Made by a program: the position numbers and the translations under genes | The notes under the pieces: model-generated | Databases searched by the model: none | The model's input: only the letters and a program-made list of their open reading frames with translations | Told to the model about the DNA's origin: nothing | DNA from: an uncultured Candidatus Saccharibacteria bacterium | GTDB taxonomy: Bacteria; Patescibacteriota; Minisyncoccia; JAHIHE01; JAGLIN01 | NCBI GenBank assembly: GCA_964412905.1 | Contig: CAYPQL010000002.1 | Location: forward strand, 1-40,756 | Direction: 5' to 3' | Length of the DNA stretch: 40,756 nt | In this document: piece by piece, positions 5,794 through 33,934 of the stretch | How positions within the stretch are numbered: position 1 is the first letter of the stretch | How the letters are laid out: every line of letters begins with the position of its first letter

Positions 5794-5810
5794 GACTTTT
5801 CTTTCTGTAT
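5390..5810 (-). other. Nudix hydrolase domain inserted in LeuRS
   Basis: A near-perfect Nudix box, GGIEKGETAEEAAIRESKEESGY (nt 5703-5635), fits GX5EX7REUXEEXGU. It lies between the end of the CP1/editing region ([15 protein letters not shown]) and the conserved INSGKFDGL motif. Confidence 0.75.
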
Positions 5811-5877
5811 TTTCTTTATCTTTTCTAATTTTATTTTTTCCTTCACCAATGAATAATGGCGCTACAACTTGTACAAA

Positions 5878-7122
5878 TTACAAATTATACTTCCTCGCAA
5901 ACTCCCAATCTCTTTCATCATGCGCCGGCACGGCCATAATCGCGCCAGTGCCGTAACTCGCTAAAACATAATCCGCGACCCAGACTGGAATTTCTTCTCC
6001 GCTTGCGGGATTAGTTGCCTTAATTCCTTTCAATTCCACTCCCGTTTTTTCTTTCGCCAAATCAGTTCTGTCCAAGTCGGATTTGTTTTTCGCCTGCTCA
6101 ATATACTTTTCAACTTCATCGTAATTTGTAATTTGTAATTTGTAATTTGTAATTAGCTCGTGTTCCGGAGAAATAACCATATAAGTGCAACCGAATAAAG
6201 TATCCGGACGGGTGGTAAATACTTCTACGAAGAATTTTGAATTTTGAATTTTGAATTTTGAATTTATTTGATATTTGGAATTTGATATTTGGAATTTTAT
6301 CACCGCTCCTTCCGATTTGCCAATCCAATTAACTTGTTGTGTTTTGATTTTATCCAAATAATCAACCGTATCCAAATCTTTAATTAGTCTGTCCGCGTAT
6401 TTTGTGATGCGGAGCATCCATTGCTTCATTGTTTTTTTCTCCGCTTTAGCATGGCACCTTTCACATTCGCCCCCGACAACTTCTTCATTGGCTAATCCGA
6501 TTTTGCAGCTTGGGCACCAGTTTATAGACATCCTGGCTTCATAGGCTAATCTGCGCTCGTCAATATATTTATTTACGGAGCTCAACTCCGAGGCTTCGGA
6601 GCTAAGCTCCTTGTCTTTTTCTAAATCTTTCGGAATTTCCAACTCTTCAATCGGCCGCGCTTTATCCAGTTTCTCATCATAAAAACTATTGAATAATTTC
6701 AAAAAAATCCACTGCGTCCACTTGTAATATTCAGGATCAGTGGTGTTTATTTCCCGCGACCAATCAAAACTCGGGCCGTAGCTTTTGATCTGGCGAGTGA
6801 AATTTTTGACATTGTTTTTTGTGACGATTCTGGGGTGCGTCTTTGTCTTAATCGCGAAATTCTCCGTCGGCAATCCGAAAGCGTCCCAGCCGATCGGATA
6901 CATCACATTATATCCGCTCATTCGCTTTTTCCGCGCGACAATATCAATGGCGATATGGCTTCGCAAATGCCCCACATGAAGCCCCGCGCCAGAAGGGTAG
7001 GGGAATTCAATTAGGCAATAATACTTCGGCTTTTTTGAAAAATCCTCAGCACTATAAATCCCGCTCCTATCCCATTCCTTCTGCCACTTTTTCTCAATTT
7101 TCTTCGGATTGTATTTTTGCAT
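5878..7122 (-). CDS. leuS: leucine--tRNA ligase, N-terminal segment (ends at an in-frame TAA, 5880-5878)
   Basis: HIGH motif ([10 protein letters not shown]), a zinc-knuckle region ([13 protein letters not shown]), and editing-domain motifs TTRPDTLFG and [16 protein letters not shown]. Confidence 0.9.
6122..6156. repeat. heptamer tandem array (TAATTTG x4 plus one variant) inside leuS
   Basis: Direct read. Encodes [10 protein letters not shown]. Confidence 0.9.
6232..6298. repeat. compound tandem array (GAATTTT x4-5, then TTTGATATTTGGAA x2) inside leuS
   Basis: Direct read. Encodes [23 protein letters not shown]. Confidence 0.9.
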
Positions 7123-7136
7123 AGATATAATTTTTA

Positions 7137-7370
7137 TTAAACTTCTTTAACATTTTTAACAGAGTTTTCTTTAGGTTCAGGTTTAAGCTCAGGCTTAGAG
7201 GCAATAATCTTGCCTTCGCTTTCAGGAGGTTCTATTATTTGCAATTCTGGATTATTCAATTTCAATTCTTCTAACATTTCTTGTTTTTTTTGTTCCTCAA
7301 GAAAATGAGCCGCTAAAACCACTTCGCTTGGAAGATTGCTCTCATTCTTTTTTGGATTTTCCATACTCAT
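7137..7370 (-). CDS. small acidic hypothetical protein (77 aa)
   Basis: ORF lying between tatD and leuS on the same strand. No SD sequence and low-complexity composition. Confidence 0.4.
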
Positions 7371-7406
7371 AATTTTTAAATTAAAAATTAAAATATTAAA
7401 ATGAAT

Positions 7407-8189
7407 TCATATTCCAAACAATCTCTTTGCATTTTCGCTCGTTGCTTTTTCTATTTTTTCAAAGTCGGTTTTTCTAACCCCAGCTATTTTTTCAGCGACA
7501 TATTTTACAAACAAAGGCTCGTTTCGCTCTCCGCGCTTGGGAATGGGAGCAAGATAAGGGCAGTCTGTTTCAATAAGCATTTTATCAAGAGGCGTATTTT
7601 TTATAACTTTATAAATTTCAGGCTCTCCGTTGAATTCCATTTTGTCTTTATAATAAGTGACAATTCCCGTGAAGCCGATATAAAATCCTAAATCTAAAAA
7701 TTCTTTGGCAATGAGCCAGCTGGCGCAGAAACAATGTATAACTCCTCTCCAATCGGAAGTTTTATAACTTTTCAAAATATCAAGCATATCATTATAAGCG
7801 TCTCGGCAATGAAGTATGATCGGCATATTGTGATTATCCGCCAATTCCAATTGCAATCTGAATGCTTCAATTTGTTTTTCTTGTGGAGATAAATTGCGAA
7901 AATAATCCAAACCTATTTCTCCGACAGCGATGACTTTGTAATGATCCGCAAGCTCTTCTATTTTTTTCAGGCTATGCTCATTGACCGTGTCCGCGTCGTG
8001 AGGATGAATCCCCGCGGAAGCAAAAATATTTTCATACTTCGTGGCAAGCTCGCAGCTTCTTGCGCTGGAATTTAAATCGCATCCGATATTGATCATTTTT
8101 TCTCCGCCACCATCAAAATATCTCGCGATAACTTCCTCGCGATCTTTGTCAAATTCTTTAAAGTCTATGTGGGCGTGTGTGTCTATCAC
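7407..8189 (-). CDS. tatD: TatD-family metal-dependent hydrolase/DNase
   Basis: N-terminal MIDTHAHIDF (HxH), GEIGLDY, and IETDCPYLAP near the C-terminus. Confidence 0.9.
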   Translation of the reverse strand: MIDTHAHIDFKEFDKDREEVIARYFDGGGEKMINIGCDLNSSARSCELATKYENIFASAGIHPHDADTVNEHSLKKIEELADHYKVIAVGEIGLDYFRNLSPQEKQIEAFRLQLELADNHNMPIILHCRDAYNDMLDILKSYKTSDWRGVIHCFCASWLIAKEFLDLGFYIGFTGIVTYYKDKMEFNGEPEIYKVIKNTPLDKMLIETDCPYLAPIPKRGERNEPLFVKYVAEKIAGVRKTDFEKIEKATSENAKRLFGI

Positions 8190-11240: not shown

Positions 11241-12305
11241 TTATTGTGTTCTTTCACTATCTTTCTCCTTGTGACTGTAAAAATCCCCCAGAACAATTGA
11301 AGCAATCGTGGTGACCGGAATGGCCAGGATAATTCCCATAATCCCGGCGAATTGTCCGCCGATTAGCATAGCGATTATAATTATAACGGGATGAAGGCCG
11401 ACCGATTTTTCCATAACCTTGGGAACAATCAAATAATTTTCAAATTGCTGGATGAAAAAATATAAAATCAAAGTGGCGGCGGCAAGAAAAGGAGAAATTG
11501 TAAAAGCGATGGCAATAGCTGGTATTGCGGACAAGGCTGGACCTATATATGGAATTAATTCCAGAACACCAGCGATTATTCCTAAAACTAGAGCATAAGG
11601 AACGCCAATTATAGACAATCCTATAAATGTCACAAAGCCAATAATAAAACCCAAAAACATTTGTCCCATAAACCATTTTCCAAGCTTAACTTCAATTTTT
11701 TTTATAATCCCAAGAGCTTGATTTCTATATTCAACGGGAACTAATGCTTGAACAAATTTTTCAACTCCATTTTCTTCAACAACAAGATAGAAAGATATAA
11801 CAAGAATAAGCACTGCGGAAAGAAGGCCTCCCAAAAATCCCAAAACACCAACGAGAATATTGGAAGTTACATTTTTTAGAGATGTGCTTGCTTCAAGCAG
11901 GACATTTTGCAAAGGTTCTGAAATATTATAATTAAATGAACCATCGGTAATTAAATTTTGGTCAGATATTGCAGTGAAATCAATTCCGGTATTTTTCATA
12001 TATGTCGGGAAATGGGAAGCCAAAGCGCCGAGTTCTTTGGCAAGGGGAGGCGCTACTAGATAACTAAGCAATCCGAAAAAAAGGAACGCCGCCATAAACA
12101 AACTCGCCGCTCCCGCGACTCTAGGAATTTTTTTCTTTTGCATCTTGTCAACAGCCGGATTCATAATTAAAGCGAGAATTATTGATATAAAAATTATAAA
12201 TATTATGCCTTTCAAATAGACAATTGCGAACAAAGCAAAAATGACTATAAAGAATTTTATAATGCTTTCATACGACAGATCCACGGTTTGTTTTTGATTT
12301 TCCAT
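11241..12305 (-). CDS. AI-2E family transporter (PerM-like permease)
   Basis: Multi-TM protein with the family-typical FIQQFENYLIVPKVM segment. Confidence 0.85.
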   Translation of the reverse strand: MENQKQTVDLSYESIIKFFIVIFALFAIVYLKGIIFIIFISIILALIMNPAVDKMQKKKIPRVAGAASLFMAAFLFFGLLSYLVAPPLAKELGALASHFPTYMKNTGIDFTAISDQNLITDGSFNYNISEPLQNVLLEASTSLKNVTSNILVGVLGFLGGLLSAVLILVISFYLVVEENGVEKFVQALVPVEYRNQALGIIKKIEVKLGKWFMGQMFLGFIIGFVTFIGLSIIGVPYALVLGIIAGVLELIPYIGPALSAIPAIAIAFTISPFLAAATLILYFFIQQFENYLIVPKVMEKSVGLHPVIIIIAMLIGGQFAGIMGIILAIPVTTIASIVLGDFYSHKEKDSERTQ

Positions 12306-22073: not shown

Positions 22074-23183
22074 ATGATAATAACTACAATAATTTTATTT
22101 TTGTTGATACTTGGGCTTATAGTGTTTTTTCACGAACTGGGGCATTTTTTTATGGCTAAGCTTTATGGCGTGAAGGTGGATGAGTTTGGAATCGGATTTC
22201 CTCCTAAAATTTTTGGATTTAAAAAAGGGGAAACCGAATATACATTAAACTGGATTCCTTTGGGCGGGTTTGTAAAAATTGTGGGCGAGGACGGGGGCGA
22301 CAAAGACGATCCGAGAAGTTTTTCTTCCAAAAGCATAAGCAAAAGGTTTCAGATAATCTCCGCCGGCGTTTTGATGAATTTTTTTATAGCTTTTGTGATT
22401 TTCAGCTTTATTTTCGCGATTGGCGCTCAAATGAATATTGCGGGAGAAGATTTGTCAAAAGCGAAAAGCGTTGAAAATCAAGAAGTTGTGATCTCAGAAG
22501 TTTTAGAAGAAACTCCTGCAAAAGATGTCGGACTTCAGATAGGAGATGCCATCTTAAAAGCTGATGAAAAAGAAATTAAGAGCATAGAAGATTTGCAAAA
22601 TTATACAAAAGAAAATCTTGGCGAAACTTTAGCTTTAACTATTTCCAGAAATGGCGATGTAAGTGTCAAGGAAATTATTCCCAGAAAAGAATATCCCGAA
22701 AACGAAGGGGCTATGGGAGTTTCTTTGGTGAATACTGCCGAAGTTTCGTTTTCTATTCCAGAAGCTATCAGAAGAGGCTTTGAATGGACCGTGTATTTGA
22801 CAATGTTTATTATTTCCGCTTTCGCGGGAATTCTTTGGAATCTTTTCGCGACCGGAAAAATGGTCGCCGAAGTTTCCGGGCCGGTTGGAATTGCCGCTAT
22901 GACCGGTCAGGCGGCGTCGCTCGGGTTTATCGCGGTTCTGAATTTTATCGCTCTAATCAGCGTAAATCTTGCCATCATTAACGCGCTTCCATTTCCGGCT
23001 CTTGACGGCGGGAGATTATTATTTTTGATTGTTGAAAAAATAAAAGGTTCGCCGCTGAATCAAGCATGGGAAGCAAAAGCGAATAATTTCGGCTTTATGC
23101 TCTTGATGGGCTTGATGATAATCGTAACATTCAAAGATGTTTTGAAGTTTGATGTTTGGGGGAAAGTTATGGGGTTGTTTTAA
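22074..23183 (+). CDS. rseP: RIP (site-2) zinc metalloprotease RseP, M50 family
   Basis: HELGHFFMAK (HExxH), a central PDZ-like segment, and C-terminal NALPFPALDGG. Confidence 0.92.
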   Translation: MIITTIILFLLILGLIVFFHELGHFFMAKLYGVKVDEFGIGFPPKIFGFKKGETEYTLNWIPLGGFVKIVGEDGGDKDDPRSFSSKSISKRFQIISAGVLMNFFIAFVIFSFIFAIGAQMNIAGEDLSKAKSVENQEVVISEVLEETPAKDVGLQIGDAILKADEKEIKSIEDLQNYTKENLGETLALTISRNGDVSVKEIIPRKEYPENEGAMGVSLVNTAEVSFSIPEAIRRGFEWTVYLTMFIISAFAGILWNLFATGKMVAEVSGPVGIAAMTGQAASLGFIAVLNFIALISVNLAIINALPFPALDGGRLLFLIVEKIKGSPLNQAWEAKANNFGFMLLMGLMIIVTFKDVLKFDVWGKVMGLF

Positions 23184-23204
23184 CCTATTAATTTTATTTA
23201 TAGC

Positions 23205-23244
23205 TAGTATAATTTTTCTGACGACCGTCAGAAAAATTATACTA
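23205..23244. repeat. perfect 19-bp-arm palindrome with a 2-nt spacer
   Basis: TAGTATAATTTTTCTGACG AC CGTCAGAAAAATTATACTA. Each arm contains TATAAT. Lies between rseP and the next gene. Confidence 0.9.
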
Positions 23245-23274
23245 TTGGGTTGGAATAAGTATTTAAACAAAAAA

Positions 23275-23640
23275 ATGAAAAAGAAAAGCATCAAAAAGAA
23301 AAAAGAAAAAATGACCATAGATAAATTGGCTGAATTGACACAGAGAGGATTTGAGGCGTTGGGAGGCGAAATGAAAAGTGAAATTAACGGTCTAAGGGGC
23401 GAAATGAAAAGTGAAATCAGCGATTTAAGGGGCGAGACAAAAAGTGAAATCAGCGATTTAAGAGGCGAGATGAAAGAGAAGTTTTATGCAGTTTTAAATA
23501 ATCAAGATCAGATTTTGAAAAGATTGGAGGATTTAGAAACTGATAATACAATGGATGTGTCTGCTCATCGCAGACACGAAGACAAGCTGGAAAGTCATGA
23601 AATAAGGATTGTTGCCGTGGAGAATAAAGTTTTAGCTTGA
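23275..23640 (+). CDS. coiled-coil hypothetical protein with 11-aa tandem repeats
   Basis: The start is moved to ATG 23275 (23311 is also possible) because the tracked 23149 start overlaps rseP and reads through the palindrome. A 33-bp unit occurs 3.3 times (23368-23478) and encodes (L)RGEMKSEIxx. Confidence 0.65.
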   Translation: MKKKSIKKKKEKMTIDKLAELTQRGFEALGGEMKSEINGLRGEMKSEISDLRGETKSEISDLRGEMKEKFYAVLNNQDQILKRLEDLETDNTMDVSAHRRHEDKLESHEIRIVAVENKVLA

Positions 23641-23672
23641 GAAAAATATTTCCGCGGAAATTATGAAACAAA

Positions 23673-23697
23673 AAGAACGAGTTATTAGCTCGTTCTT
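23673..23697. terminator. hairpin between convergent genes (bidirectional terminator candidate)
   Basis: Stem AAGAACGAG / CTCGTTCTT with a 7-nt loop, nested within an outer ATTTCCGC/GCGGAAAT pairing. Confidence 0.55.
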
Positions 23698-23719
23698 GCG
23701 GAAATAAATAAAAAATATA

Positions 23720-24055
23720 TTAATATCCATTTTTAGATAATTCTTTTGGCATTTCTATTTTAAATTCTTTTGTTTCTTTATTTACTTTTATTATATAATT
23801 TTTTTCTTCTAAAAATTTAATTATTGCTTTAATTTTTTCTTCAGTTAGATTTTCTCCTTTTGCATCAATATTTTCTACTTCTTCAAATGGTAATGTTATT
23901 TCAGACAATGTTTTATTTTCACTAAATTCTTGCATCACAGCTCCTTCAACAGCTTGGGTAAAATCTATTATATCACTTTCTTTTAAATTTTCAGGACTCG
24001 CAATATAAATTTCATTCATAATTTTTATATGATTATTAATTAAAACTATAAACAT
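23720..24055 (-). CDS. hypothetical acidic protein (111 aa; alternative start at 24019)
   Basis: ORF only. No motif and no SD recognised. Confidence 0.5.
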   Translation of the reverse strand: MFIVLINNHIKIMNEIYIASPENLKESDIIDFTQAVEGAVMQEFSENKTLSEITLPFEEVENIDAKGENLTEEKIKAIIKFLEEKNYIIKVNKETKEFKIEMPKELSKNGY

Positions 24056-24092
24056 TATATCACACTAAATTAAACAAATCAATACCAAATTT

Positions 24093-24290
24093 ATGCGGCA
24101 ATCAAAACTTTTCGGGAAAACAATTAAAGAGGTTCCGAGGGACGAGGAGATCGTGAACGCGCGGCTTTTGATAAGGGGCGGGTTTGTGGATAAATTGATG
24201 GCGGGAGTTTATACATATCTTCCGCCGGGAAAAAGAGTCTTGGCTAAAATAGAAAACATAATCCGCGAGGAAATGGACGCGATCGGCGGG
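24093..24290 (+). pseudogene. proline--tRNA ligase 5' fragment (66 codons)
   Basis: MRQSKLFGKTIKEVPRDEEIVNARLLIRGGFVDKLMAGVYTYLPPGKRVLAKIENIIREEMDAIGG matches the ProRS N-terminus. Similarity ends at 24290, and the frame then reads unrelated sequence to the stop at 24344. Confidence 0.8.
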
Positions 24291-24292
24291 CC

Positions 24293-24570
24293 GTCAAAGC
24301 GGATCTGGCCGCGATTGTTTCTATCGCGTTGCCGGAGGGCGTGAAAGGGTTTGTGTTTCGCGACGGCGTTTTTATCTGCGATATAAAATTTTCAGTCAAT
24401 CTGGCATCTTTATTAAGGTATGATTTAATAAAGGTAGCCGAAGCCAATATGGCCTTAGTGGGAAAAGACGAAAAGTTGGAATTTACGGCGACTTGAAAGG
24501 CTTGACCGGAGGCACGATACAGGAAATAAAAATGCTGGAGCTGGGGAGCGGGGAGGAAAGTGAAAAGTAA
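24293..24570 (+). pseudogene. decayed C-terminal remnant of a DUF2130-family gene
   Basis: Frame A (24293-24496) reads KADLAAIVSIALPEGVKGFVFRDGVFICD...LIKVAEANMALVGKDEKLE. Frame B (24481-24570) reads IYGDLKGLTGGTIQEIKMLELGS. Both resemble, from memory, the two ends of the DUF2130 C-terminal region, joined by a deletion plus a frameshift. No N-terminal part is present. Confidence 0.55.
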
Positions 24571-24586
24571 TTTGTTTAAATAACAC

Positions 24587-25948
24587 ATGAAATCACCAAT
24601 TTTAAATTCACCATATTTTGAACCGGGTCGTCATTTTAAAGCTGACGAACGCGGCCTAACCGAAGATATCGTTGAAAGCCGCCGGCCAAGCAGTTTTTAT
24701 ATTCCTGTTTCTCGCGCTAAGACGAAACAAAAAAAGATGGAGTTTAACACTGCTGAAGGCGCTTTTGGCAGTGAATTACAAAAAGAAAATGAATTTATCA
24801 ATAAACTTCGCGCGAAAATAAAAAATTGGCGCGCAAACGGATACGCCGGAATTACAAAAACATCTCGCGATTTGCTTTCTTATTGGCAAGATGACACAAG
24901 GGAAAACAAACTTTTCTTTTGCCAAATTGAAGCGCTTGAAACTCTTATTTATATAAATGAAGTTGCTGAAAAAGCCGGCGAAAGCTGGATTATTAGCGAG
25001 CTAAAAAAAGCATCTGCGGAAGCGAATCCGGGTCTTTATCGTTTAGCTTTTAAAATGGCAACCGGATCAGGGAAGACAGTTGTGATGGCAATGATTATCG
25101 CTTATAACACGCTGAACAAAATTCGCTATCCACAAGACACTCGATTTACCGATACTTTTGCTATTATTACCCCCGGCATTACCATTCGCGATAGATTAAA
25201 TGTTCTTTTGCCGAATGATTCAAAAAATTATTATAAAGAGCGTGCGGTTGTTTCGCCGCAGGATCTTGATTTATTGCAACAGGCAAATATTTTTATAACA
25301 AATTTTCATCAATTAGAACAAAGACAAAATTCGCGATTCCAAGTTGGCGGAGTTATGAAAGCGGCCGGACTTTTAAAAAATGAAGCGATGAAAGAAAGCC
25401 CGGGCGCTATGGTCAATCGCGCGTTTAAAAGTATTTTGAATAAATCGCGCGTCTTAGTAATCAATGACGAAGCCCATCATTGTTATCGAGAAAAGCCGAC
25501 GGAAGAAAAACTTGCTGGTGAAGACAGGAAAGAAGCGGACGAAAATAACAAAGCCGCTCGCGTGTGGCTGAGCGGATTGGAAGCGCTATCTAAAAAAATG
25601 TCGGTCAATGCGGTAATTGACTTATCTGCCACGCCTTATTTTCTTAGGGGTTCGGGATATCAGGAAGGCACAATGTTTCCCTGGACTATTTATGATTTTT
25701 CATTATTAGACGCTTTGGAATGCGGGGTAGTAAAAATTCCGCGTTTACCTGTCGAATCAGATACGGTTGGCAATGATGATATTCCGGAATTTCGCAATCT
25801 TTGGCTTCATGTTTCCGACGCGTTGCCTAAAAAAGGAATGAAAACCGGCGGTAAAGATTATTTATCTTCCAATGTGTTGCCTAAAACTCTTCAAGAAGCG
25901 CTGATGTCACTGTATGGCAATTACGAAGAAAAATACTATCGGCGTTAG
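24587..25948 (+). CDS. res: Type III-like restriction enzyme Res subunit, N-terminal part (helicase lobe 1; ends at an in-frame TAG)
   Basis: Motif I (MATGSGKTVVM), motif II (VINDEAHHC) and motif III (DLSATP). N-terminal ILNSPYFEPGRHF is typical of this Res family. Confidence 0.85.
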   Translation: MKSPILNSPYFEPGRHFKADERGLTEDIVESRRPSSFYIPVSRAKTKQKKMEFNTAEGAFGSELQKENEFINKLRAKIKNWRANGYAGITKTSRDLLSYWQDDTRENKLFFCQIEALETLIYINEVAEKAGESWIISELKKASAEANPGLYRLAFKMATGSGKTVVMAMIIAYNTLNKIRYPQDTRFTDTFAIITPGITIRDRLNVLLPNDSKNYYKERAVVSPQDLDLLQQANIFITNFHQLEQRQNSRFQVGGVMKAAGLLKNEAMKESPGAMVNRAFKSILNKSRVLVINDEAHHCYREKPTEEKLAGEDRKEADENNKAARVWLSGLEALSKKMSVNAVIDLSATPYFLRGSGYQEGTMFPWTIYDFSLLDALECGVVKIPRLPVESDTVGNDDIPEFRNLWLHVSDALPKKGMKTGGKDYLSSNVLPKTLQEALMSLYGNYEEKYYRR

Positions 25949-25978
25949 GAGGAAGAAAAAAATAAAAATCAAACCGTA

Positions 25979-27544
25979 ATGCCGCCGGTAATGATTATTG
26001 TGTGTAATAATACGGCGGTTTCTGAATTGGTTTATCGTTGGATCGCTGGATTTGAACGCGAGACTCCAAGCGGAAAGATAAAAATTGAAGAAGGTAATTT
26101 GAAAATTTTTAGAAATGAAGACGGCACGCGTTTTTTTGACAAGCCCAATACTCTCATAATCGATAGCCACCAATTGGAAAGCGGCGAAAAAATTGATGAT
26201 AATTTTAAAAAAATATTTGCGGCTGAAATTAAAGATTTTCACAAAGAATATAAAAAGCGTTTTCCCGGCCGCGAAGAGCCGACTGACGAGGAGTTGCTCC
26301 GCGAGGTCATGAATACTGTCGGCAAGCCCGGCAAACTGGGAGAAAATATCAAATGCGTGGTTTCAGTTTCAATGCTCACGGAGGGATGGGATGTAAACAC
26401 CGTCACACATATTCTTGGCATTCGCGCTTTTTCCACTCAATTACTTTGCGAGCAGGTTGTCGGTCGCGCGTTGCGCCGGGTTGATTATAGTGTTGATGAA
26501 TCTACGGGATTTTTATCCGAAGAATACGCCGAGGTTTATGGCGTGCCTTTTAGTTTTTTGAAAGTAGGCGGCGAGACGGCGCCAAAACCGCCAAAAGTTA
26601 TTCATCGCGTTCATGCGCTGCCGGATCGCGAACAATATGAAATCACATATCCGCGCGTAGAGGGTTATCGTTATGAATTAAATGAAACTAAACTGGCCGC
26701 AAAATTCAGCGAGGAATCAAAAACAATTATTGAAAACGAGCCGACGGAAGTTACTCTTGGCGGAGTAATTGGCGAGGAGACCTTGGAAACACTGGAAAAA
26801 ATAAAAGAACGACGCGAAGGCGAGGTAATTATCCGTTTATCAAAGGCTCTTCTTAAACGCTATTATACTGATGCCGAAGGTGCAGAAAAATATTGGCTTT
26901 TTCCGCAATTGCAAAAAATTACCGAAGAATATGTCAAAAAATATGTTGTGCTAAAAGACAGAATGGTTATCGGTTATCTTACTATGGGAGAATATTTTTC
27001 CGGCGCGCTTACCAAGATTCAGCAAGCGATTATTTTTGAAAATTTGGAATATCAAAAAGATAAACAGCTTTTGCCGATTCTTGCGCCTTATGACACGATC
27101 GGTTCAACTCGTTACATCGATTTTTTAACGACGAAAGAAGTCGGAGAAACGACAAAAAGCCATATCAATTATGTCGTGGCGGATACTGAAGAATGGGAGC
27201 AAGGCGTTGCCAAAAAACTGGAACAAATGTCTGAAGTTTTAGCGTATGTTAAAAATCAAAATATGGGTTTTTCTATTCCTTACGAGCATCAAGGCGTAGC
27301 CCATCAATATTTGCCGGATTTTATCGCGATTTTGGAAATGCCGGATAAAAGTAAGCTTAACTTGTTAATTGAAGTAACCGGCAAAAAAGAAGATAAGAAA
27401 AAAATGAAAATCAAGACCACTCGCGATCTTTGGGTGCCGGCAATCAATAATTTCGGCAAATATGGCAAGTGGGCGATTTTGGAAGTTCAAGATATTCATG
27501 AAACGCAAAATTTGATACACTCTTTAATAAATTTACAAGAATAA
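25979..27544 (+). CDS. res: Type III-like restriction enzyme Res subunit, C-terminal part (helicase lobe 2 plus PD-(D/E)xK nuclease)
   Basis: Same frame as 24587-25948, with only TAG 25946-25948 intervening. PPVMIIVCNNT, motif V (MLTEGWDVNTV), motif VI (QVVGRALRR), and a C-terminal nuclease-like YLPDF...LLIEVTGKK. Confidence 0.85.
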   Translation: MPPVMIIVCNNTAVSELVYRWIAGFERETPSGKIKIEEGNLKIFRNEDGTRFFDKPNTLIIDSHQLESGEKIDDNFKKIFAAEIKDFHKEYKKRFPGREEPTDEELLREVMNTVGKPGKLGENIKCVVSVSMLTEGWDVNTVTHILGIRAFSTQLLCEQVVGRALRRVDYSVDESTGFLSEEYAEVYGVPFSFLKVGGETAPKPPKVIHRVHALPDREQYEITYPRVEGYRYELNETKLAAKFSEESKTIIENEPTEVTLGGVIGEETLETLEKIKERREGEVIIRLSKALLKRYYTDAEGAEKYWLFPQLQKITEEYVKKYVVLKDRMVIGYLTMGEYFSGALTKIQQAIIFENLEYQKDKQLLPILAPYDTIGSTRYIDFLTTKEVGETTKSHINYVVADTEEWEQGVAKKLEQMSEVLAYVKNQNMGFSIPYEHQGVAHQYLPDFIAILEMPDKSKLNLLIEVTGKKEDKKKMKIKTTRDLWVPAINNFGKYGKWAILEVQDIHETQNLIHSLINLQE

Positions 27545-27551
27545 GTTTTAT

Positions 27552-29180
27552 ATGGTTAAAACAACAGAGGAACAATTTAAAAAATGGTTAGAAACGCCTG
27601 AGGAAGGATTGCATTTAGAATTTAAAAAAGCTGAAAATAATTTTAATAAATCAAAAGATTTGCCCGATTATTGCGCTGCTTTGGCGAACGAAAGGGGTGG
27701 TAAATTGATTTTAGGTGTTACCAATGATAGGATTGTGACTGGTACAAGAGTTTTTTCTGGAACAGTCCAGACACTGCCAAATGACCTTATGCAGTTGATA
27801 GGAATCAGAATTGATATTGAAGAATTTTTTTATGAAGGCGAACGAGTTTTAATTTTTCATATTCCCAGCCGTCCGATTGGCAAGGCCATTAAATCAAATA
27901 AGGTTTATTGGATGCGAGCCGGCAGTTCTTTGGTTCCGATGGATGAGGAAACGCTTAAAAATATCTTTAATGAAAATATAGTTGATTTTTCAAGTCAAAT
28001 AGTCCATGGCATGATTCTTGCGGATATTAGTGGCGAGGCAATAGATATTTTTCGGAACAAATGGGCGAAAAAACAAAACCAACCGAAATATCTTGAATTT
28101 TCTGACGAAAAAACTTTACGCGAAGTTGGTTTGATGGATGAAAATAATGGCATAACATATGCCGCATTAATTTTATTTGGAAATAAAAATAAAATCGATC
28201 AATTTATTCCTTGCGCGGAAATAAGTTATGAATGGCGAATGTCCAATACGATAGAACATGATTTCCGTGCTAATTGGCGCGAACCATTTTTTAAAGTTTA
28301 CAATGCTATCTGGCAGGAAACTAACAATAGAAATATCAGATTTCCTTATCAAGAAGGTTTCGTTCAGCGAGAAATATTGGCTTTTTCTGAAAAAGTAATT
28401 CGTGAAGCGGTTTTAAATGCTGTGGCCCACAGGGATTATTCAATTCAAAACGGCTGGATTTTCATAAAAGCCTCTCCATATGAATATAAAATCGAAAGTC
28501 CTGGCGGTTTTTTGCCCGGTATAACGGAGGACAATGCTATAGATCGTCGTGCGACAAGAAATAGGCTTATTTGTGAAATTTTTGAAAAAGCAGGTTTAGT
28601 AGAACGCTCTGGCCAAGGAATTGATCTTATCTTTGAGATTACAATCAGAGAAGGAAAGGGTCTCCCGAGTTTTAAGGGTACGGATAATTATCGAGTAGTT
28701 ATTAATATTCCAGCCGAAGTAAAAGATTTTGGCTTTGTTAAATTTATTGAAAAGATAGCGAACGAAAAACAGCTTAACTTTTCTACAGAAGAAATTATTG
28801 AATTGGAAAGGATAAAAGAAAATGGAAAAATAAAAGGAAACAAGTTTATAAAGAAATTTTTAAGTTTAGGGATTATTGAAAAAGTTGGTAAAACAAGTAA
28901 TTTGTCATATATGTTATCGCATAGATATTATATTAATGAAGGAAAATCTGGCGTTTATACACGAATAGCCGGTTTATCGAGGGAAGAAAAGAAGCAGTTG
29001 ATCCTTAATCATATTCAAAAAAATAAAAAAGGATACGCTAAGGATTTTAAAGACGGGCTTTCTGACATTAAATCAAAAGATGTGTCAAACTTTTTGCAAG
29101 AATTAAAAAAAGAAGGGAAAATAATTCATAAAGGATCAGATAGAAGCGGCTATTGGGAAATTCAAGTTAGCAGTAATTAG
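27552..29180 (+). CDS. Schlafen-like AlbA_2 domain plus HATPase_c_4 (RecG-C-like) ATP-binding protein with a C-terminal wHTH
   Basis: N-terminal EGLHLEFKKA....LPDYCAALANERGGKLILGV fits the AlbA_2 pattern. The middle region REAVLNAVAHRDYS...IESPGGFLPGIT...RNRLICEIFEKAGLVERSGQGI fits the HATPase_c_4 pattern. It starts 7 nt after the res stop. Confidence 0.8.
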   Translation: MVKTTEEQFKKWLETPEEGLHLEFKKAENNFNKSKDLPDYCAALANERGGKLILGVTNDRIVTGTRVFSGTVQTLPNDLMQLIGIRIDIEEFFYEGERVLIFHIPSRPIGKAIKSNKVYWMRAGSSLVPMDEETLKNIFNENIVDFSSQIVHGMILADISGEAIDIFRNKWAKKQNQPKYLEFSDEKTLREVGLMDENNGITYAALILFGNKNKIDQFIPCAEISYEWRMSNTIEHDFRANWREPFFKVYNAIWQETNNRNIRFPYQEGFVQREILAFSEKVIREAVLNAVAHRDYSIQNGWIFIKASPYEYKIESPGGFLPGITEDNAIDRRATRNRLICEIFEKAGLVERSGQGIDLIFEITIREGKGLPSFKGTDNYRVVINIPAEVKDFGFVKFIEKIANEKQLNFSTEEIIELERIKENGKIKGNKFIKKFLSLGIIEKVGKTSNLSYMLSHRYYINEGKSGVYTRIAGLSREEKKQLILNHIQKNKKGYAKDFKDGLSDIKSKDVSNFLQELKKEGKIIHKGSDRSGYWEIQVSSN

Positions 29181-29333
29181 CAGTAATTTAGATGTAATTT
29201 TAATAACAAGCGCTTGTTATAAAGGAAAACCGGTTATTAAATTAGATGTAAATATAACAAATCATCAATGGTTATAAAATGATAATTTTAATGTTTTTTA
29301 TAAATAAACCTTTAAAATAATTTTTTAATAATT

Positions 29334-31826
29334 ATGCCGAGAAAAAAAACAATACTGCCGGTAACTGCCGCATCGGTTAAATCTTATAAACACAAAAATA
29401 AGCGTGTTCGCATTCCGACACAAGAAGAATCGATCAAACTTTCGGCGCGCGAGAAACAACCGGTTAAAACAAAATATGATTATGATCCGTCGCTGGATCC
29501 GCAATTAATTTGGGCCGGCAAAAAAGAGCAAGGCGCGGAATTGGCTGTGCCGACCGTGCCGATTTATGTGCAGGAAAAAATCGCGCCGGAGGCGATTATC
29601 GCGCGCCTAAAGCAGGGGACAAAAGAAGAAACCCAGTATTCTCTTTTTGGCGAAACGGCGCAAGAGCAGTTTGATAAAACAATAGAATTTTATAAGCATG
29701 AGGATAATTGGCAAAACCGTATGATTCTGGGCGATTCACTTTTGGTAATGAATAGCTTGCTGGAAAAAGAAGGTATGCGCGGACGGGTACAGATGATTTA
29801 TATTGATCCGCCATATGGAATCAAGTTTGGCTCTAATTGGCAGGTTTCCACGAGAAAACGGGATGTGAAAGATAATAAGCTGGAGGACTTTATTCGCCAA
29901 CCGGAACAGGTTAAGGCCTTTCGCGATACTTGGGAATTAGGTATTCATTCTTATCTTTCTTATTTGCGCGATCGGCTTTTAGTTGCCCGCGAGCTTCTAA
30001 CTGAAGGCGGAAGTTGTTTTGTGCAGATAAGCGATGAAAATGTGCATTTGGTCAGGAATTTAATGGATGAGGTATTTGGAAGTAATAATTTTGTAAGTCA
30101 AATTACATTAAAACGGGCTTCGGTTATGTTTACTAAAAAATATATAAAAAGCGATGTTTATTATGTTGTTTGGTTTGCAAAAGACATTGATCATTTGAAG
30201 TATCGCCAAATATACAAAGAACAAACCTTACAAGAATTTGCGGATAGCTCAGGTTCACATTTGTGGTTTGAGGAAGCAAATACAAAACAATGTACTAAAG
30301 CAACGCCAGAACAAAGGAAAAACATCGAAAAATATTTAAAAAATAATCCATCCCTAATTCCATTTTCGACACTTGGATTGAATGCCCAGGGCATAGAAAA
30401 ACAAAAACCTTTTAATTTTAAAGGGAAAGATTATTTTCCTCCAAAGGGGACTCAGTGGAAAAGCTCCTATATTGGCTTACAAAAATTGGTTGATATCGGA
30501 AGACTAATTATCGAAGGAAATAATATTAGATATAAATATTACCACAAAGATTATCCTGTTAGTGAAATGGGGAATTATTGGGAATCAATAGGCGCACCGG
30601 GAGATAAAATATATGTTGTTCAAACAAGCGAAGAAATTAATCGGCGTTGTATTTTATTAACAACCGATCCGGGCGATTTGGTTTTAGACCCGACTTGCGG
30701 CTCCGGAACGACTGCTTTTGTCGCCGAGCAGTGGGGTAGGCGATGGATTACCATTGATACTTCTCGCGTTTCTTTGGCGTTGGCGCGCACACGACTAATG
30801 ACGGCTAAATTTTCATGTTATAAACTCAAAGATAGACATAGCGTTTCAGCCGGATTTGAATATAAAACCGTGCCGCATGTGACTTTAAAATCTCTCGCCA
30901 ATGATGAGCCGGCGGAGCGGGAAGTTTTATACGATCAGCCGTTTGAAAATAAAGATATTGTTCGCGTGTCTGGTCCGTTCACGGTTGAATCTCTTTCGCC
31001 GCATCGAGTTTCCGACGCGCAAGAAATGCTTTCTTCCGAGCGATTTGTGGAAACGATTGTCAGTAATCTTTTGAAATCCGGCGTACAAACCGGTGAAAAA
31101 GGCGCGCGGGTGGAATTTGTAAATCTGGATATTTTGCCGAGTGGCCCGGAAGTGCAGGCCGTCGGAGAATATAAAACTAATGACGGATTGAAAAAAGTCG
31201 CGGTTTCTATTGGCCCTGAATTTGGCAGTATTGACGATGATTTCATTCGCGATGCCTCCACTATTGCCAAGAAATTCGCCGATCTTCTCGTAATTGCCGC
31301 TACATCTTTTGAAGCATCGGCGTTTTCCGAGCCGACACAAGTCAATGGTTTGCAAATAATGAAAGTAAAAATCAACCCGGATTTGTCTATGGGCGATTTG
31401 CTTAAAAAAACCAGCTCTGGCAATTTATTTATCGCCTTTGGCGAGCCGGAAGTGAAAATTAAAGAAACAAAAGATGGCGTGACGGTGGAAATTGTCGGCG
31501 TGGATATTTATGATCCGGTAAAAAGCGAAATTCGTTCTAGTGGCTCTGGCGATCCGGAACATGAAATTGCCGCATGGTTTATTGATACCAATTACAATAA
31601 AGAAGCGTTTTTTGTAACTCATGCCTACTTCTTGGGCGCTAATAAGCCGTATGAGAAACTAAAAAAAGCGCTGAAAGCCGATATTGACGAGGCTGCGTGG
31701 GAAGAATTATATTCCACAATTTCCCGACCGTTTGCAAAACCAAAAACCGGCAAAATCGCTGTGAAAGTTATCAATCATTATGGCGATGAAGTTATGAAAA
31801 TTATTGAAATTAAACAAGGGAGGTGA
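29334..31826 (+). CDS. mod: Type III-like DNA methyltransferase Mod (beta-class N6A/N4C MTase)
   Basis: Motif IV (IYIDPPYG) lies upstream of motif I (LDPTCGSGTTAFVA), which is the beta permutation typical of Mod. N-terminal DPSLDPQLIWAGK...PIYVQEKI is typical of the family partnered with this Res type. Confidence 0.88.
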   Translation: MPRKKTILPVTAASVKSYKHKNKRVRIPTQEESIKLSAREKQPVKTKYDYDPSLDPQLIWAGKKEQGAELAVPTVPIYVQEKIAPEAIIARLKQGTKEETQYSLFGETAQEQFDKTIEFYKHEDNWQNRMILGDSLLVMNSLLEKEGMRGRVQMIYIDPPYGIKFGSNWQVSTRKRDVKDNKLEDFIRQPEQVKAFRDTWELGIHSYLSYLRDRLLVARELLTEGGSCFVQISDENVHLVRNLMDEVFGSNNFVSQITLKRASVMFTKKYIKSDVYYVVWFAKDIDHLKYRQIYKEQTLQEFADSSGSHLWFEEANTKQCTKATPEQRKNIEKYLKNNPSLIPFSTLGLNAQGIEKQKPFNFKGKDYFPPKGTQWKSSYIGLQKLVDIGRLIIEGNNIRYKYYHKDYPVSEMGNYWESIGAPGDKIYVVQTSEEINRRCILLTTDPGDLVLDPTCGSGTTAFVAEQWGRRWITIDTSRVSLALARTRLMTAKFSCYKLKDRHSVSAGFEYKTVPHVTLKSLANDEPAEREVLYDQPFENKDIVRVSGPFTVESLSPHRVSDAQEMLSSERFVETIVSNLLKSGVQTGEKGARVEFVNLDILPSGPEVQAVGEYKTNDGLKKVAVSIGPEFGSIDDDFIRDASTIAKKFADLLVIAATSFEASAFSEPTQVNGLQIMKVKINPDLSMGDLLKKTSSGNLFIAFGEPEVKIKETKDGVTVEIVGVDIYDPVKSEIRSSGSGDPEHEIAAWFIDTNYNKEAFFVTHAYFLGANKPYEKLKKALKADIDEAAWEELYSTISRPFAKPKTGKIAVKVINHYGDEVMKIIEIKQGR

Positions 31827-32212
31827 TTAAAATTTATAATTAAATCTATTTTTAGATAATAATTAGTGTGCAACTTTGCCCCCTATTGCTAGGCGCTTTC
31901 GTTTGTTTTGTAATGATAATGCGCAAGTTATTGCGCGATAAAATATAAAAGTGAAGCATAATAAAACAACAGATGCGCGCCTCGGCTTATCACTTGAATA
32001 AATTTTGTTTAGTCGTCAATAAAAATTTATAATCCGTAGCAAGAGAACACCTCGTGGTGTTTTTAAAGACACGCAGAGTGTTCGCAATTTTTATGTTTTT
32101 TCTTTACAAATAATATCAATAGTGGTATTTTATCTATGTGCCGTGGAAAAACACACGGGGAGATAAATATAATTCATCTCAATAACTTTAAGTAAAATAA
32201 TCATACTAAATC

Positions 32213-33934
32213 ATGAAATTTTCTAAATATTTTTTAAAAACTGCCAAAAATGTATCCAATGAAGATAAAAGCGTTTCAGCAAAACTTCTTAAACAGGGCG
32301 GATTTATTCGCGAATCCGTTGCCGGGCGCTATTATTTCCTGCCTATTGGGCAGAAAGTACAACAAAAAATAATGCAAGTTATAAAGGAAGAAATGGATTC
32401 TGCGGGGGCGCAAGAAATGGTCACGCCAATTTTACATCCGTTGGAATTATGGAAAGAAACGAACAGAATCAATACTGCCGGTTTTGAGCTAATGAAAGTT
32501 AAAGATCGCCGGGGCGCGGAATTTGCTTTGGGCGGCACTGCGGAAGAAATGTTCGTTGATCTGATTCGCCAATATAAATTAAGTTACCGCGATTTGCCTT
32601 TTCAGATTTATCAATTTTCGCCGAAGTTTCGCGATGAATTGCGCGCTCGCGGAGGATTGCTTCGGGTACGGGAATTTATAATGAAAGACGGTTATTCATT
32701 TCATAAAGACGAAGAAGATTTTAAAGTTGAGTATGAAAAAATGAAAAAGGTTTACACTAGAATATTCGACCGGCTAGGTTTAAAAACTTCTATTGTAGAA
32801 TCTGATAACGGATATATCGGCGGAGAATATTGCCATGAGTTTATTGTTGAGTCAGAAATTGGAGAAAGCGCTTATTTTATCGCGGAAAAAGGTGAATATG
32901 CCGCGCACGAAGATATTGCCGTATTTAAAAAAGAGATTAAGAATAAGGAGGAGGTACAGCAGTTATTGAAAGAGGTTGATGCTGAACGAGGGGCGACAAT
33001 GGAAGACGGGGTTAAATTTCATAAATTACCTCTTTGGCAACAGATCAAAGACGTTCTCTTTGTGGATGATAAAAAAAGATTTATTCTGGCAATTATCAGA
33101 GGTGATTTTGATGTGAATGAAGTTAAATTAAAAAATCTTATTAAATCGACCACACTAAGACATGCAACAGATGAAGAGATTAGAGAACAAATTAAATCAG
33201 AACCGGGTTTTATTTCTCCGGTCGGAATTAAAAAAGGAATTGATAAAAATGTTGAGCTTGTTATTGCAGCTGATGATTCCTTAAGAACAATCGCCAATGC
33301 TTATGGCGGAAGCAATAGGAAAAACAAGGATCTTTTGAATGTGAATATTGATAGAGATTATGAGCCGGATATGGAAGGTGACATTGCTTTAGCAAAAGCC
33401 GGATATGAAGCGCTTGGCAGCGCGGGTAAGCTGTTTGAAAAATGCGGGATTGAAGTTGGAAATATTTTTCAACTTGGATATCATTACTCAAATAAAATGA
33501 AAGGCGCTGTTTATATTAACGCGGAAGGGAAGGAAAAGCCATATTATATGGGTTCTTATGGAATTGGCATTGGGCGAACAATGGCGGCTATTGTTGAAAA
33601 ATATAACGACCAAAACGGCATCATCTGGCCGAAATCAATCGCGCCGTATCAAGTTCATTTGATTTCTTTGGGCGGCGATGAAGCTGTTATAAAAGAATCG
33701 GAAAAGATATATGATTCTTTACAAAAGGAAAAAATTGAAGTATTATATGACGACCGCGACGAATCGGCGGGAATAAAATTCAAAGACTCGGATTTAATCG
33801 GAATTCCGCTTAGAATCGTGGTTAGCAAGAAGACCATGGAGAAAAATAACGTTGAAATAAAAAGAAGAGACAAAGATAATTCTGAACTTGTTAAAATTAG
33901 CGATTTAATAAATTTTTTAGAGAAAAATAAATAA
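32213..33934 (+). CDS. proS: proline--tRNA ligase (bacterial type, intact)
   Basis: Class II motifs (FRDELRARGGLLRVREFIMKDGYSF; GSYGIGIGR), an internal insertion domain and a C-terminal anticodon-binding domain. Length 573 aa. Confidence 0.92.
   Translation: MKFSKYFLKTAKNVSNEDKSVSAKLLKQGGFIRESVAGRYYFLPIGQKVQQKIMQVIKEEMDSAGAQEMVTPILHPLELWKETNRINTAGFELMKVKDRRGAEFALGGTAEEMFVDLIRQYKLSYRDLPFQIYQFSPKFRDELRARGGLLRVREFIMKDGYSFHKDEEDFKVEYEKMKKVYTRIFDRLGLKTSIVESDNGYIGGEYCHEFIVESEIGESAYFIAEKGEYAAHEDIAVFKKEIKNKEEVQQLLKEVDAERGATMEDGVKFHKLPLWQQIKDVLFVDDKKRFILAIIRGDFDVNEVKLKNLIKSTTLRHATDEEIREQIKSEPGFISPVGIKKGIDKNVELVIAADDSLRTIANAYGGSNRKNKDLLNVNIDRDYEPDMEGDIALAKAGYEALGSAGKLFEKCGIEVGNIFQLGYHYSNKMKGAVYINAEGKEKPYYMGSYGIGIGRTMAAIVEKYNDQNGIIWPKSIAPYQVHLISLGGDEAVIKESEKIYDSLQKEKIEVLYDDRDESAGIKFKDSDLIGIPLRIVVSKKTMEKNNVEIKRRDKDNSELVKISDLINFLEKNK

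Follow-up and report, generated by a model that had tools for sequence, protein, structure and literature searches.

Here we describe a bacterial Schlafen gene, whose product is related to the antiviral RNases of that name in humans, lodged between the res and mod genes of a Type III-like restriction–modification (R-M) operon in an uncultured Candidatus Saccharibacteria bacterium (contig CAYPQL010000002.1, positions 1 to 40,756, hereafter the window). The open reading frame (ORF) is followed at its 3′ end by an array of short, helically phased direct repeats, and the two together form a discrete unit, which we call a cassette. Our favored reading, which we hold at about even confidence, is that the cassette encodes a self-contained Schlafen tRNase, gated by ATP-dependent oligomerization and probably docking on the repeats 3′ of its gene, and was inserted in the R-M operon for joint expression and transfer as a second-layer effector. 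The gene and its predicted domains are as follows.

27552–29180, plus strand: Schlafen-GHKL-winged helix-turn-helix (wHTH) gene, 542 aa, of the prokaryotic Schlafen (pSlfn) class named 'HisKinase-HTH' or 'Schlatpase-HTH' (ORF calling, Pfam, AlphaFold, Foldseek).
27603–27941, plus strand: Schlafen/AlbA_2 nuclease domain, aa 18–130 (Pfam, invariant motif, PDB profile search).
28389–28706, plus strand: GHKL (Bergerat) ATPase core, aa ~280–385 (Pfam HATPase_c_4, invariant columns, Foldseek).
28728–29162, plus strand: two tandem winged-helix domains, aa 393–455 and 477–537 (AlphaFold secondary structure, Foldseek, weak Pfam DUF2250).

A previous reading made from the sequence alone (the sequence-only reading) had placed a 542-aa gene 7 nt 3′ of res, with a 153-nt AT-rich gap before mod, and had proposed AlbA_2, HATPase_c_4, and wHTH domains for its product. 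The coordinates were borne out, and the domain assignment passed a profile hidden Markov model check in which both Pfam matches lay well over the curated cutoffs: SLFN_AlbA_2 at aa 18–130 (E 3.7e-14, 53.7 bits against a cutoff of 25.3) and HATPase_c_4 at aa 313–380 (E 1.2e-11, 44.9 bits against 26). The wHTH assignment came from AlphaFold and Foldseek, with a weak Pfam match to DUF2250 at aa 474–523. An AlphaFold2 model built from 61 homologues (mean predicted local distance difference test score of 83) places an N-terminal α/β domain before a central α/β sandwich and the winged helices at 393–455 and 477–537. Foldseek matched the N-terminus of this model to SLFN12, SLFN11, SLFN14, SLFN5, and the SAMD9 tRNase with a probability of 1.0 (the Schlafen C-lobe fold), its middle to GHKL kinases, namely PDK2/PDK and the CA (ATP-binding) domains of histidine kinases, and its tail to the wHTH proteins AspA, MecI, and DsrD. 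A sequence-profile search agreed with Foldseek on the whole domain layout; against the PDB, the Schlafen domain aligned to the catalytic region of SLFN12/14/11/8 with E values of 9e-6 to 3e-3. NCBIfam gave no match to the protein, and PADLOC had no model for the whole of it, returning partial matches to Schlafen models associated with prokaryotic Argonaute (pAgo).

The residues expected of a working enzyme are conserved. The protein carries the RNase motif E18-GLHL-E23-F-K25 (E18-x4-E23-x-K25), an instance of the Schlafen catalytic motif Ex4(E/D)xK (PMC13056530), and a SAFAN-like Schlafen box, C41-AALAN-46. Across 61 homologues of many phyla, E18, E23, K25, A43, and N46 are invariant, as is the ATPase motif E285-x3-N289, which corresponds to the Mg/γ-phosphate residues E314/N318 of RzAgo. 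Further GHKL motifs are found at 316–319 (SPGG) and 351–356 (ERSGQG). Both the RNase active-site and the ATP/Mg-binding motifs are intact.

The gene belongs to a described class. 'HisKinase-HTH' proteins make up 19% of prokaryotic Schlafens and are the commonest pSlfn class (Taboada et al., Nat Microbiol 2026, PMC13056530), the Schlafen-GHKL-HTH architecture being the largest among prokaryotic Schlafens. The pairing of Schlafen and GHKL domains has been named 'Schlatpase' in a preprint that counts ~60,000 proteins with the Schlafen–ATPase pair and reports an HTH in >90% of Schlatpase tails (bioRxiv 10.64898/2026.05.29.728809). The window protein shares with this class the domain order PF04326, PF13749, and HTH, the motifs, and the proximity to defense genes; the Type III position between res and mod, the 3′ repeat arrays, and a biochemically characterized stand-alone member are absent from PMC13056530 and the Schlatpase preprint. 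Schlafen–ATPase–DNA-binding proteins have been described as 'tightly associated' with R-M, BREX, and type I CRISPR systems (the Cash paper, PMC13462974), and Schlafen–minimal histidine kinase–wHTH proteins as 'backup suicidal effectors' in BREX/BR loci of at least 1,017 taxa (PMC12839542). Cluster 7 and Cluster 2 of the former study and the effectors of the latter are of the same class as the window protein and likewise lie within methylation-based restriction operons. The published catalogues cover BREX/BR and unspecified R-M systems, whereas the host here is a Type III-like system of the BPTD_3080 family and the insertion is polymorphic.

Two characterized or solved proteins offer further points of comparison. 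The SLFN-pAgo RzAgo of Runella zeae has a homologous Schlafen–GHKL module, and a PADLOC pAgo model matches aa 6–301 of the window protein at 1e-10. RzAgo undergoes ATP-driven tetramerization and cleaves tRNA, and module exchange with R-M proteins is documented (bioRxiv 10.64898/2026.05.29.728809). It senses DNA through an RNA-guided Argonaute core, whereas the window protein has two wHTH domains and no guide-binding module. DIP2311 of Corynebacterium diphtheriae (PDB 3LMM) is a full-length homologue (profile E 5e-27 over aa 4–376, Foldseek E 7e-28), but it is only ~18% identical to the window protein and is a structural genomics entry without assigned function or context.

Comparison with close relatives of the operon identified the segment that is new to it.

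~27517–29326, plus strand: segment absent from the relative L092, the inserted Schlafen cassette, comprising a new res 3′ tail, the ORF, the repeats, and the spacer (blastn against L092).

Blastn homology to L092, whose Res is 94% identical, stops at 27516 and restarts at 29327, and in L092 the res–mod gap is 20 nt. In five distinct relatives with Res 80–94% identical (L085, L086, L087, L088/L089, and L092), res and mod lie 2–20 nt apart or overlap slightly, with no gene between them. The direct adjacency of res and mod in the closest relatives marks the Schlafen gene as an insertion. In the window, as in all five relatives, res precedes mod, and this is the native order of the BPTD_3080 R-M family rather than an inversion of mod-res; the sequence-only reading had taken mod-res as canonical and res-X-mod as unusual, which is wrong for this family. 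The arrangement res-Schlafen-mod recurs in L001 (Schlafen 96% identical) and L090 (Schlafen 68% and Res 75% identical), and the Schlafen proteins of the window, L001, and L090 fall in one clade of the protein tree. The same R-M system can thus be compared in nature with the cassette (L001, L090) and without it (relatives among L085–L092).

The host system itself looks like a very mobile cassette, probably phage- or element-borne. Res proteins of the BPTD_3080 family are 77–94% identical across Patescibacteria, Omnitrophota, Brocadiales, Zixibacteria, and others (homologues P0121–P0240), and the R-M relatives without a Schlafen gene (L085–L089, L092) often stand beside serine recombinases, phage genes, terminase, or FtsK-like genes. 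The center of the window mod (30110–30605) cannot be aligned to the mod of L092, with which the gene is otherwise 87–88% identical, and is consistent with an exchanged target-recognition region of different specificity.

To place the insertion in a wider frame, we took the 80 best genomic loci with Schlafen relatives (39–96% identity), called their ORFs, and labeled neighbors with profiles seeded from the window Res and Mod and from locus neighbors; as a check, the −1 and +1 genes were also scanned in aggregate with Pfam and PADLOC. Contexts were counted over 73 homologues that are full-length and non-redundant, among them those of the window, L090, and L091.

23 of 73 loci: mod-Schlafen-res, in another Type III family, 25–27% identical to the window Res and Mod.
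2 of 73 loci: mod-Schlafen at a contig end.
3 of 73 loci: res-Schlafen-mod.
4 of 73 loci: directly beside a mod-res pair.
1 of 73 loci: near a Type I system.
8 of 73 loci: inside Hma/Type-1 BREX-related operons (SNF2-NOV_C helicase / Schlafen / DUF1156 methylase / HEPN-DUF499 ATPase).
32 of 73 loci: context unassigned, with no R-M-like operon recognized by the seed profiles.

Of the 73 members, 26 sit between two R-M genes, against ~5 loci in which they lie beside R-M genes; the 26 comprise both gene orders and belong to two Type III families that are unrelated to each other, and the eight loci in Hma/BREX-related operons come on top. Embedding between R-M genes is far beyond chance and is not bound to one partner family or to one upstream gene. 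Embedded loci typically have an upstream junction of −4 to +8 nt and a downstream gap of 47–320 nt, which the window fits exactly. Five of the loci (L071, L081–L084, of the Hma/Type-1 BR kind) reproduce the published BR context exactly. Two cultured hosts show the same kind of layout on plasmids, as Sulfitobacter and Phaeobacter carry 23%-identical homologues arranged methyltransferase-Schlafen-helicase, and an Aeromonas IncU plasmid carries a distant Schlafen homologue 5′ of hsdM-hsdS (Type I). These plasmids could serve as culturable models, the first two for mod-Schlafen-res and the third for a position beside a Type I system, although a search of the plasmid collection returned distant homologues alone, 22–28% identical and of another subfamily. 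Two side observations concern the same position. In L044, a mod-Schlafen-res locus, an extra gene for a 917-aa AAA_21/SMC-like ATPase (5025–7775) lies between mod and the Schlafen gene and is a further accessory insertion at that position. In four loci the Schlafen genes are in tandem, the −1 gene itself encoding an AlbA_2/Schlafen domain.

The second component of the cassette lies at the 3′ end of the gene.

29167–29251, plus strand: four TTAGMWGTAA direct repeats (29167, 29177, 29188, 29242) over the stop codon (motif scan of the window).
29200–29223: near-perfect 24-bp palindrome, TTAATAACAAGC/GCTTGTTATAAA, between repeat copies 3 and 4, with no T-run after it.

The last codons and the start of the spacer read TTAGCAGTAA TTAGCAGTAA t TTAGATGTAA, and 54 nt further on TTAGATGTAA occurs again. 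TTAGMWGTAA has six matches in the 40.7-kb window against 0.44 expected, and four of the six fall within 85 nt. L006, whose protein is 60% identical and which has no R-M neighbor, carries three tandem copies of ATTAGATGTA directly after the stop codon (11618–11650).

Arrays of this kind begin at the stop codon of nearly every Schlafen-GHKL-wHTH gene in the survey. At least three copies of some 9-mer (at most one mismatch) were present at 67% of Schlafen 3′ ends, compared with 11% of 316 control 3′ ends, which were gene ends taken from the same loci; mean copy numbers were 3.29 and 1.93, respectively (Mann–Whitney p 1.4e-23). Repeat spacing peaks sharply at 10–11 nt (88 of 211 intervals), whereas the controls are flat. 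The first copy lies at the Schlafen stop codon, with a median offset of 0, and arrays often comprise two clusters 50–70 nt apart. Stop-codon arrays were seen in the window, L006, L030, L039, L043, L058, L070, L071, L075, L079, and L080, and at 5607–5646 of L094. Motifs are lineage-specific, among them TTAGAT-type, TCTAGAC, TACATTT, and ACATAAAAC, with CGCAAT and GTGCAAT in the Hma clade, and one repeat motif is common to proteins of different phyla that are only 47–60% identical. The Sulfitobacter plasmid homologue has three copies of TAAGAAAG in a 61-nt spacer (0.10 expected), and its Phaeobacter counterpart has two copies of TACGAAAG and one of TAAGAAAG at positions matching those of the Sulfitobacter copy. 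No second repeat cluster was found: a search that took in the region 5′ of the operon and the rest of the loci met with scattered background singletons only. The searchable literature holds no prior description of repeat arrays at Schlafen 3′ ends.

The most economical reading of the repeats is that they are candidate binding sites, probably for the tandem winged helices of the protein itself, which makes the array a candidate DNA ligand of the HTH. Motif similarity tracks wHTH identity when N-terminal identity is controlled (partial r 0.21, permutation p 0.0005), while the reverse comparison gives 0.05. Arrays of this form have familiar counterparts in iteron and centromere systems, such as the 11-bp parC repeats of plasmid R1 bound by ParR and Rep–iteron systems with tandem winged helices. 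As in those systems, direct repeats phased by one helical turn, often in two clusters, stand beside a tandem-wHTH gene, and the window wHTH resembles the centromere binder AspA; the differences are that no partition or replication genes are found here and that the array lies 3′ of a nuclease gene. We also considered the repeats as a Mod recognition site, such as AGACC inside TTCTAGACC (L030/L031/L038), and rejected this as a general account, since the motif recurs without an R-M neighbor (window versus L006).

The cassette has entered the res–mod junction of a mobile Type III-like R-M system that is normally built as res-mod, and cassettes of the same type lie within other Type III and Hma/BREX-related operons. 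Under the favored reading, its nuclease would be gated by ATP-dependent oligomerization and, once triggered, would cleave tRNA and abort infection, as homology to RzAgo, Cash, and RorSlfn5 suggests. Co-transcribed and co-transferred with the restriction system, it would act as a second-layer effector. The wHTH domains may bind the adjacent array; the protein could thereby be tethered or regulated, along with the transcription that enters the R-M gene 3′ of it. Should the repeats indeed be docking sites, they would account both for the silencing of a potentially toxic RNase and for its connection to restriction systems. The effector idea is a rediscovery of a published hypothesis, and the new elements here are the insertion polymorphism, the Type III embedding in both orders, and the 3′ repeat arrays. 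Accordingly, the 'R-M-guarded second effector' of the sequence-only reading holds up in its second half, which agrees with the hypothesis published in 2026 (PMC12839542, PMC13462974) and with the recurrent embedding, while the guarded part is unsupported.

Several observations weigh against the favored reading. The third acidic residue of the Schlafen triad has no fixed alignment column. When seven partner-free pSlfn constructs were tried in E. coli, the HisKinase type included, only the DUF262 and Ig-like fusions protected (PMC13056530), and neither RNA cleavage nor defense has been demonstrated for any member of the exact architecture. The 32 unassigned homologues cannot be attributed to defense, and some adjoin housekeeping genes. 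Binding of the repeats by the wHTH domains is read from anatomy. Finally, with res broken and the upstream DUF2130 gene degraded, the island may be decaying.

One alternative is a guard of the PrrC kind, in which the Schlafen protein would be held inactive by contact with Res/Mod and freed as a tRNase once a phage anti-restriction factor disables the R-M system. PrrC combines an ABC-ATPase-like domain with an anticodon-nuclease domain. Its gene is embedded among the R-M genes of EcoprrI (Type Ic hsd), much as the window gene is embedded here with gaps of 7 and 153 nt. The gene lies within the operon and is tightly coupled to the upstream R-M gene, the position between genes is strongly preferred over the adjacent one (26 versus ~5 loci), and the failure of the partner-free HisKinase-type pSlfn to defend (PMC13056530) would fit dependence on a partner. 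However, the two folds are unrelated and the R-M types differ; no homology to PrrC emerged from the Pfam, PADLOC, PDB, and Foldseek searches, which gave only Schlafen, GHKL, and wHTH matches. Co-phylogeny is also weak. In a mirror-tree comparison of 16 complete mod-Schlafen-res loci, Mod and Res correlated at r 0.96, but Schlafen correlated at only 0.39 with Res and 0.48 with Mod; such a comparison bears on binding only indirectly. Members of the same clade are embedded in unrelated systems, where the adjacent gene may be that of Mod, Res, or an SNF2 helicase. The Schlafen tree shows the different contexts intermixed, and no R-M-like operon was recognized around 32 of the 73 homologues. In the window, moreover, a nonsense codon interrupts res, whereas the Schlafen ORF is unbroken.

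Synonymous divergence (dS) points the same way. Between the window (27552–29177) and L001 (10001–11626), dS is ~0.1 over Schlafen aa 1–385 but 0.50 in the wHTH region, and it is 0.35–0.43 in res; this mosaic suggests that the part of the Schlafen gene encoding the enzymatic domains has recently recombined between lineages. Weak co-phylogeny, interspersed contexts, and mosaic dS together indicate a cassette swapped among hosts rather than one co-evolving with a cognate partner. These data argue against a specific protein–protein mask in the style of PrrC, though a functional link to R-M is compatible with them, and the latent effector held by R-M that the sequence-only reading had drawn from the PrrC analogy is in our judgment unlikely.

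A guard tethered to DNA is another unlikely possibility, to which we give the same low weight. Here the mobile unit would be the ORF together with an operator array of its own, and the complex of the wHTH domains and the repeats on the host chromosome would keep an ATP-gated tRNase latent and would also gate downstream transcription, and loss of the complex during infection would free the nuclease. Such loss could come about if the host DNA is damaged, if foreign DNA titrates the protein, or if the methylation of the repeats changes. This logic would be distinct from those of PrrC, Cash, and SLFN-pAgo.

Rather doubtful, in our view, is that the protein is mainly a DNA-binding regulator or insulator, akin to an R-M controller (C) protein, which would control the downstream R-M gene while its Schlafen and GHKL domains play a sensory or structural part. 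The two wHTH domains speak for such a role, as do the helically phased repeats, which occupy exactly the interval from the Schlafen gene to its downstream neighbor and frequently form two clusters 50–70 nt apart, and the historical COG2865 label, 'predicted transcriptional regulator'. But with nuclease and ATPase motifs invariant in 61 sequences from many phyla, a purely regulatory protein is hard to reconcile. L016, L022, and L080 have arrays as well, and there the downstream gene is either convergent or unrelated. In most loci the downstream gene is res but here it is mod, so no single logic of R-M timing fits. C proteins are HTH proteins of ~80–100 aa with palindromic C-boxes upstream of their own gene or of res, whereas the window protein has 542 aa, enzymatic domains, and direct repeats at its 3′ side. 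The fallback of the sequence-only reading, a transcriptional regulator of the island, gains partial support from the 3′ array, and the invariant motifs count against a regulator alone.

We consider it very unlikely that the gene is a non-defense or decaying element, with some other role (for example in RNA/DNA metabolism, 'RecG-related') and a position that is a relic of horizontal transfer. The res nonsense codon and the degraded DUF2130 gene would suit this account, the island stands alone in a housekeeping region between rseP and proS-mreBCD, and 30% of pSlfn genes lie away from defense genes (PMC13056530). Against it stand the recurrent embedding in R-M-like operons, the low ratios of nonsynonymous to synonymous divergence (dN/dS) set out below, and the intact relative L001, whose cassette has Fic, Shedu (SduA_C), and AbiEii genes as neighbors. 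Least probable of all, to the point of being close to negligible, is an arrangement like a Type III toxin–antitoxin system, in which repeats transcribed in the 3′ untranslated region would be the RNA inhibitor or substrate of the Schlafen RNase (cf. ToxI/ToxN): an endoribonuclease gene does lie beside same-strand tandem repeats of lineage-specific sequence, but ToxIN-like loci have tandem repeats of ~34–45 nt upstream of the endoRNase, whereas the units here are 10–11 nt rather than ~36 nt, lie downstream, match the DNA helical repeat in their phasing, and are reversed in some lineages (ATCTA versus TAGAT), and the spacer showed no RNA element (fold z-score 0.11, no Rfam match).

The genes that flank the cassette encode, by their domain content, a Type III-like R-M pair, an SF2 (superfamily 2) helicase/endonuclease Res and an N6_N4 methyltransferase Mod.

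24281–24570, plus strand: DUF2130 gene remnant, degraded (blastn against L001).
24587–25948, plus strand: res N-terminal ORF, SF2 helicase half, 453 aa, ending at a premature TAG (Pfam ResIII; NF046055 positions 2–449 of 970, E 1.7e-164).
25946–25948, plus strand: in-frame TAG in res, Tyr454 to stop, TAT in L001 (comparison with L001).
25979–27544, plus strand: res C-terminal ORF, helicase C half and RE_endonuc nuclease domain, 521 aa (NF046055 positions 459–968, E 3e-164; weak Pfam RE_endonuc).
29181–29333, plus strand: AT-rich spacer between the Schlafen gene and mod, 153 nt (terminator, RNA-fold, and Rfam scans).
29334–31826, plus strand: mod, 830 aa, N6_N4 methyltransferase of the Type III class (Pfam; PADLOC MTase_III 1.6e-200).

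Res belongs to NCBIfam NF046055, 'BPTD_3080 family restriction endonuclease'. Its stop codon, TAA at 27542–27544, is followed after 7 nt by the Schlafen ATG at 27552. On the other side of the Schlafen gene, the spacer has a GC content of 17% in the near-identical copy of L001. This nearest relative of the window locus is contig JAHILZ010000055 from a Patescibacteria metagenome-assembled genome, and it is 93.5% identical to window positions 24478–31814 without gaps. The two res ORFs share one frame and are split by the TAG at 25946–25948, so that the reading frame is not intact in the window; L001 has TAT (Tyr) at this site and an intact Res of 985 aa, and the frame is intact in L002 and L003 as well. 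Between the window and L001, dN/dS is 0.045–0.05 for the res halves, 0.09 for the Schlafen gene, and 0.05 for mod, and all three genes are under purifying selection. With the res halves at ~0.05, the TAG either arose very recently as a nonsense mutation or is an artifact of sequencing or assembly. An alternative genetic code was rejected as an explanation for the in-frame stop, as the codon is TAG, the other ORFs read normally in table 11, and the relative has TAT.

The island is flanked by rseP and by proS-mreB-mreC-PBP2, on a chromosome where gyrB, frr, and metG are found as well; no tRNA was found in the window. A promoter and terminator scan of 23100–32300 returned as many sites as expected from shuffled sequence and was uninformative; it placed no terminator in the spacer that precedes mod. 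An ORF of 163 aa at 23149–23640 overlaps the end of rseP and has only a weak match to the profile of the two-transmembrane mycoplasma family MG_279/MG_280 (E 4e-5, well below the cutoff); it is probably a small membrane protein or no gene. Upstream of res, blastn aligned window positions 24281–24475 to L001 6561–6755 (83%) and the window from 24478 onward to L001 from 6927 onward, leaving 171 nt missing between the two. The DUF2130 gene is intact in L001, where it ends 16 nt upstream of res. DUF2130 is also encoded 3′ of mod in L085, and it may be another accessory gene of the BPTD_3080 R-M family.

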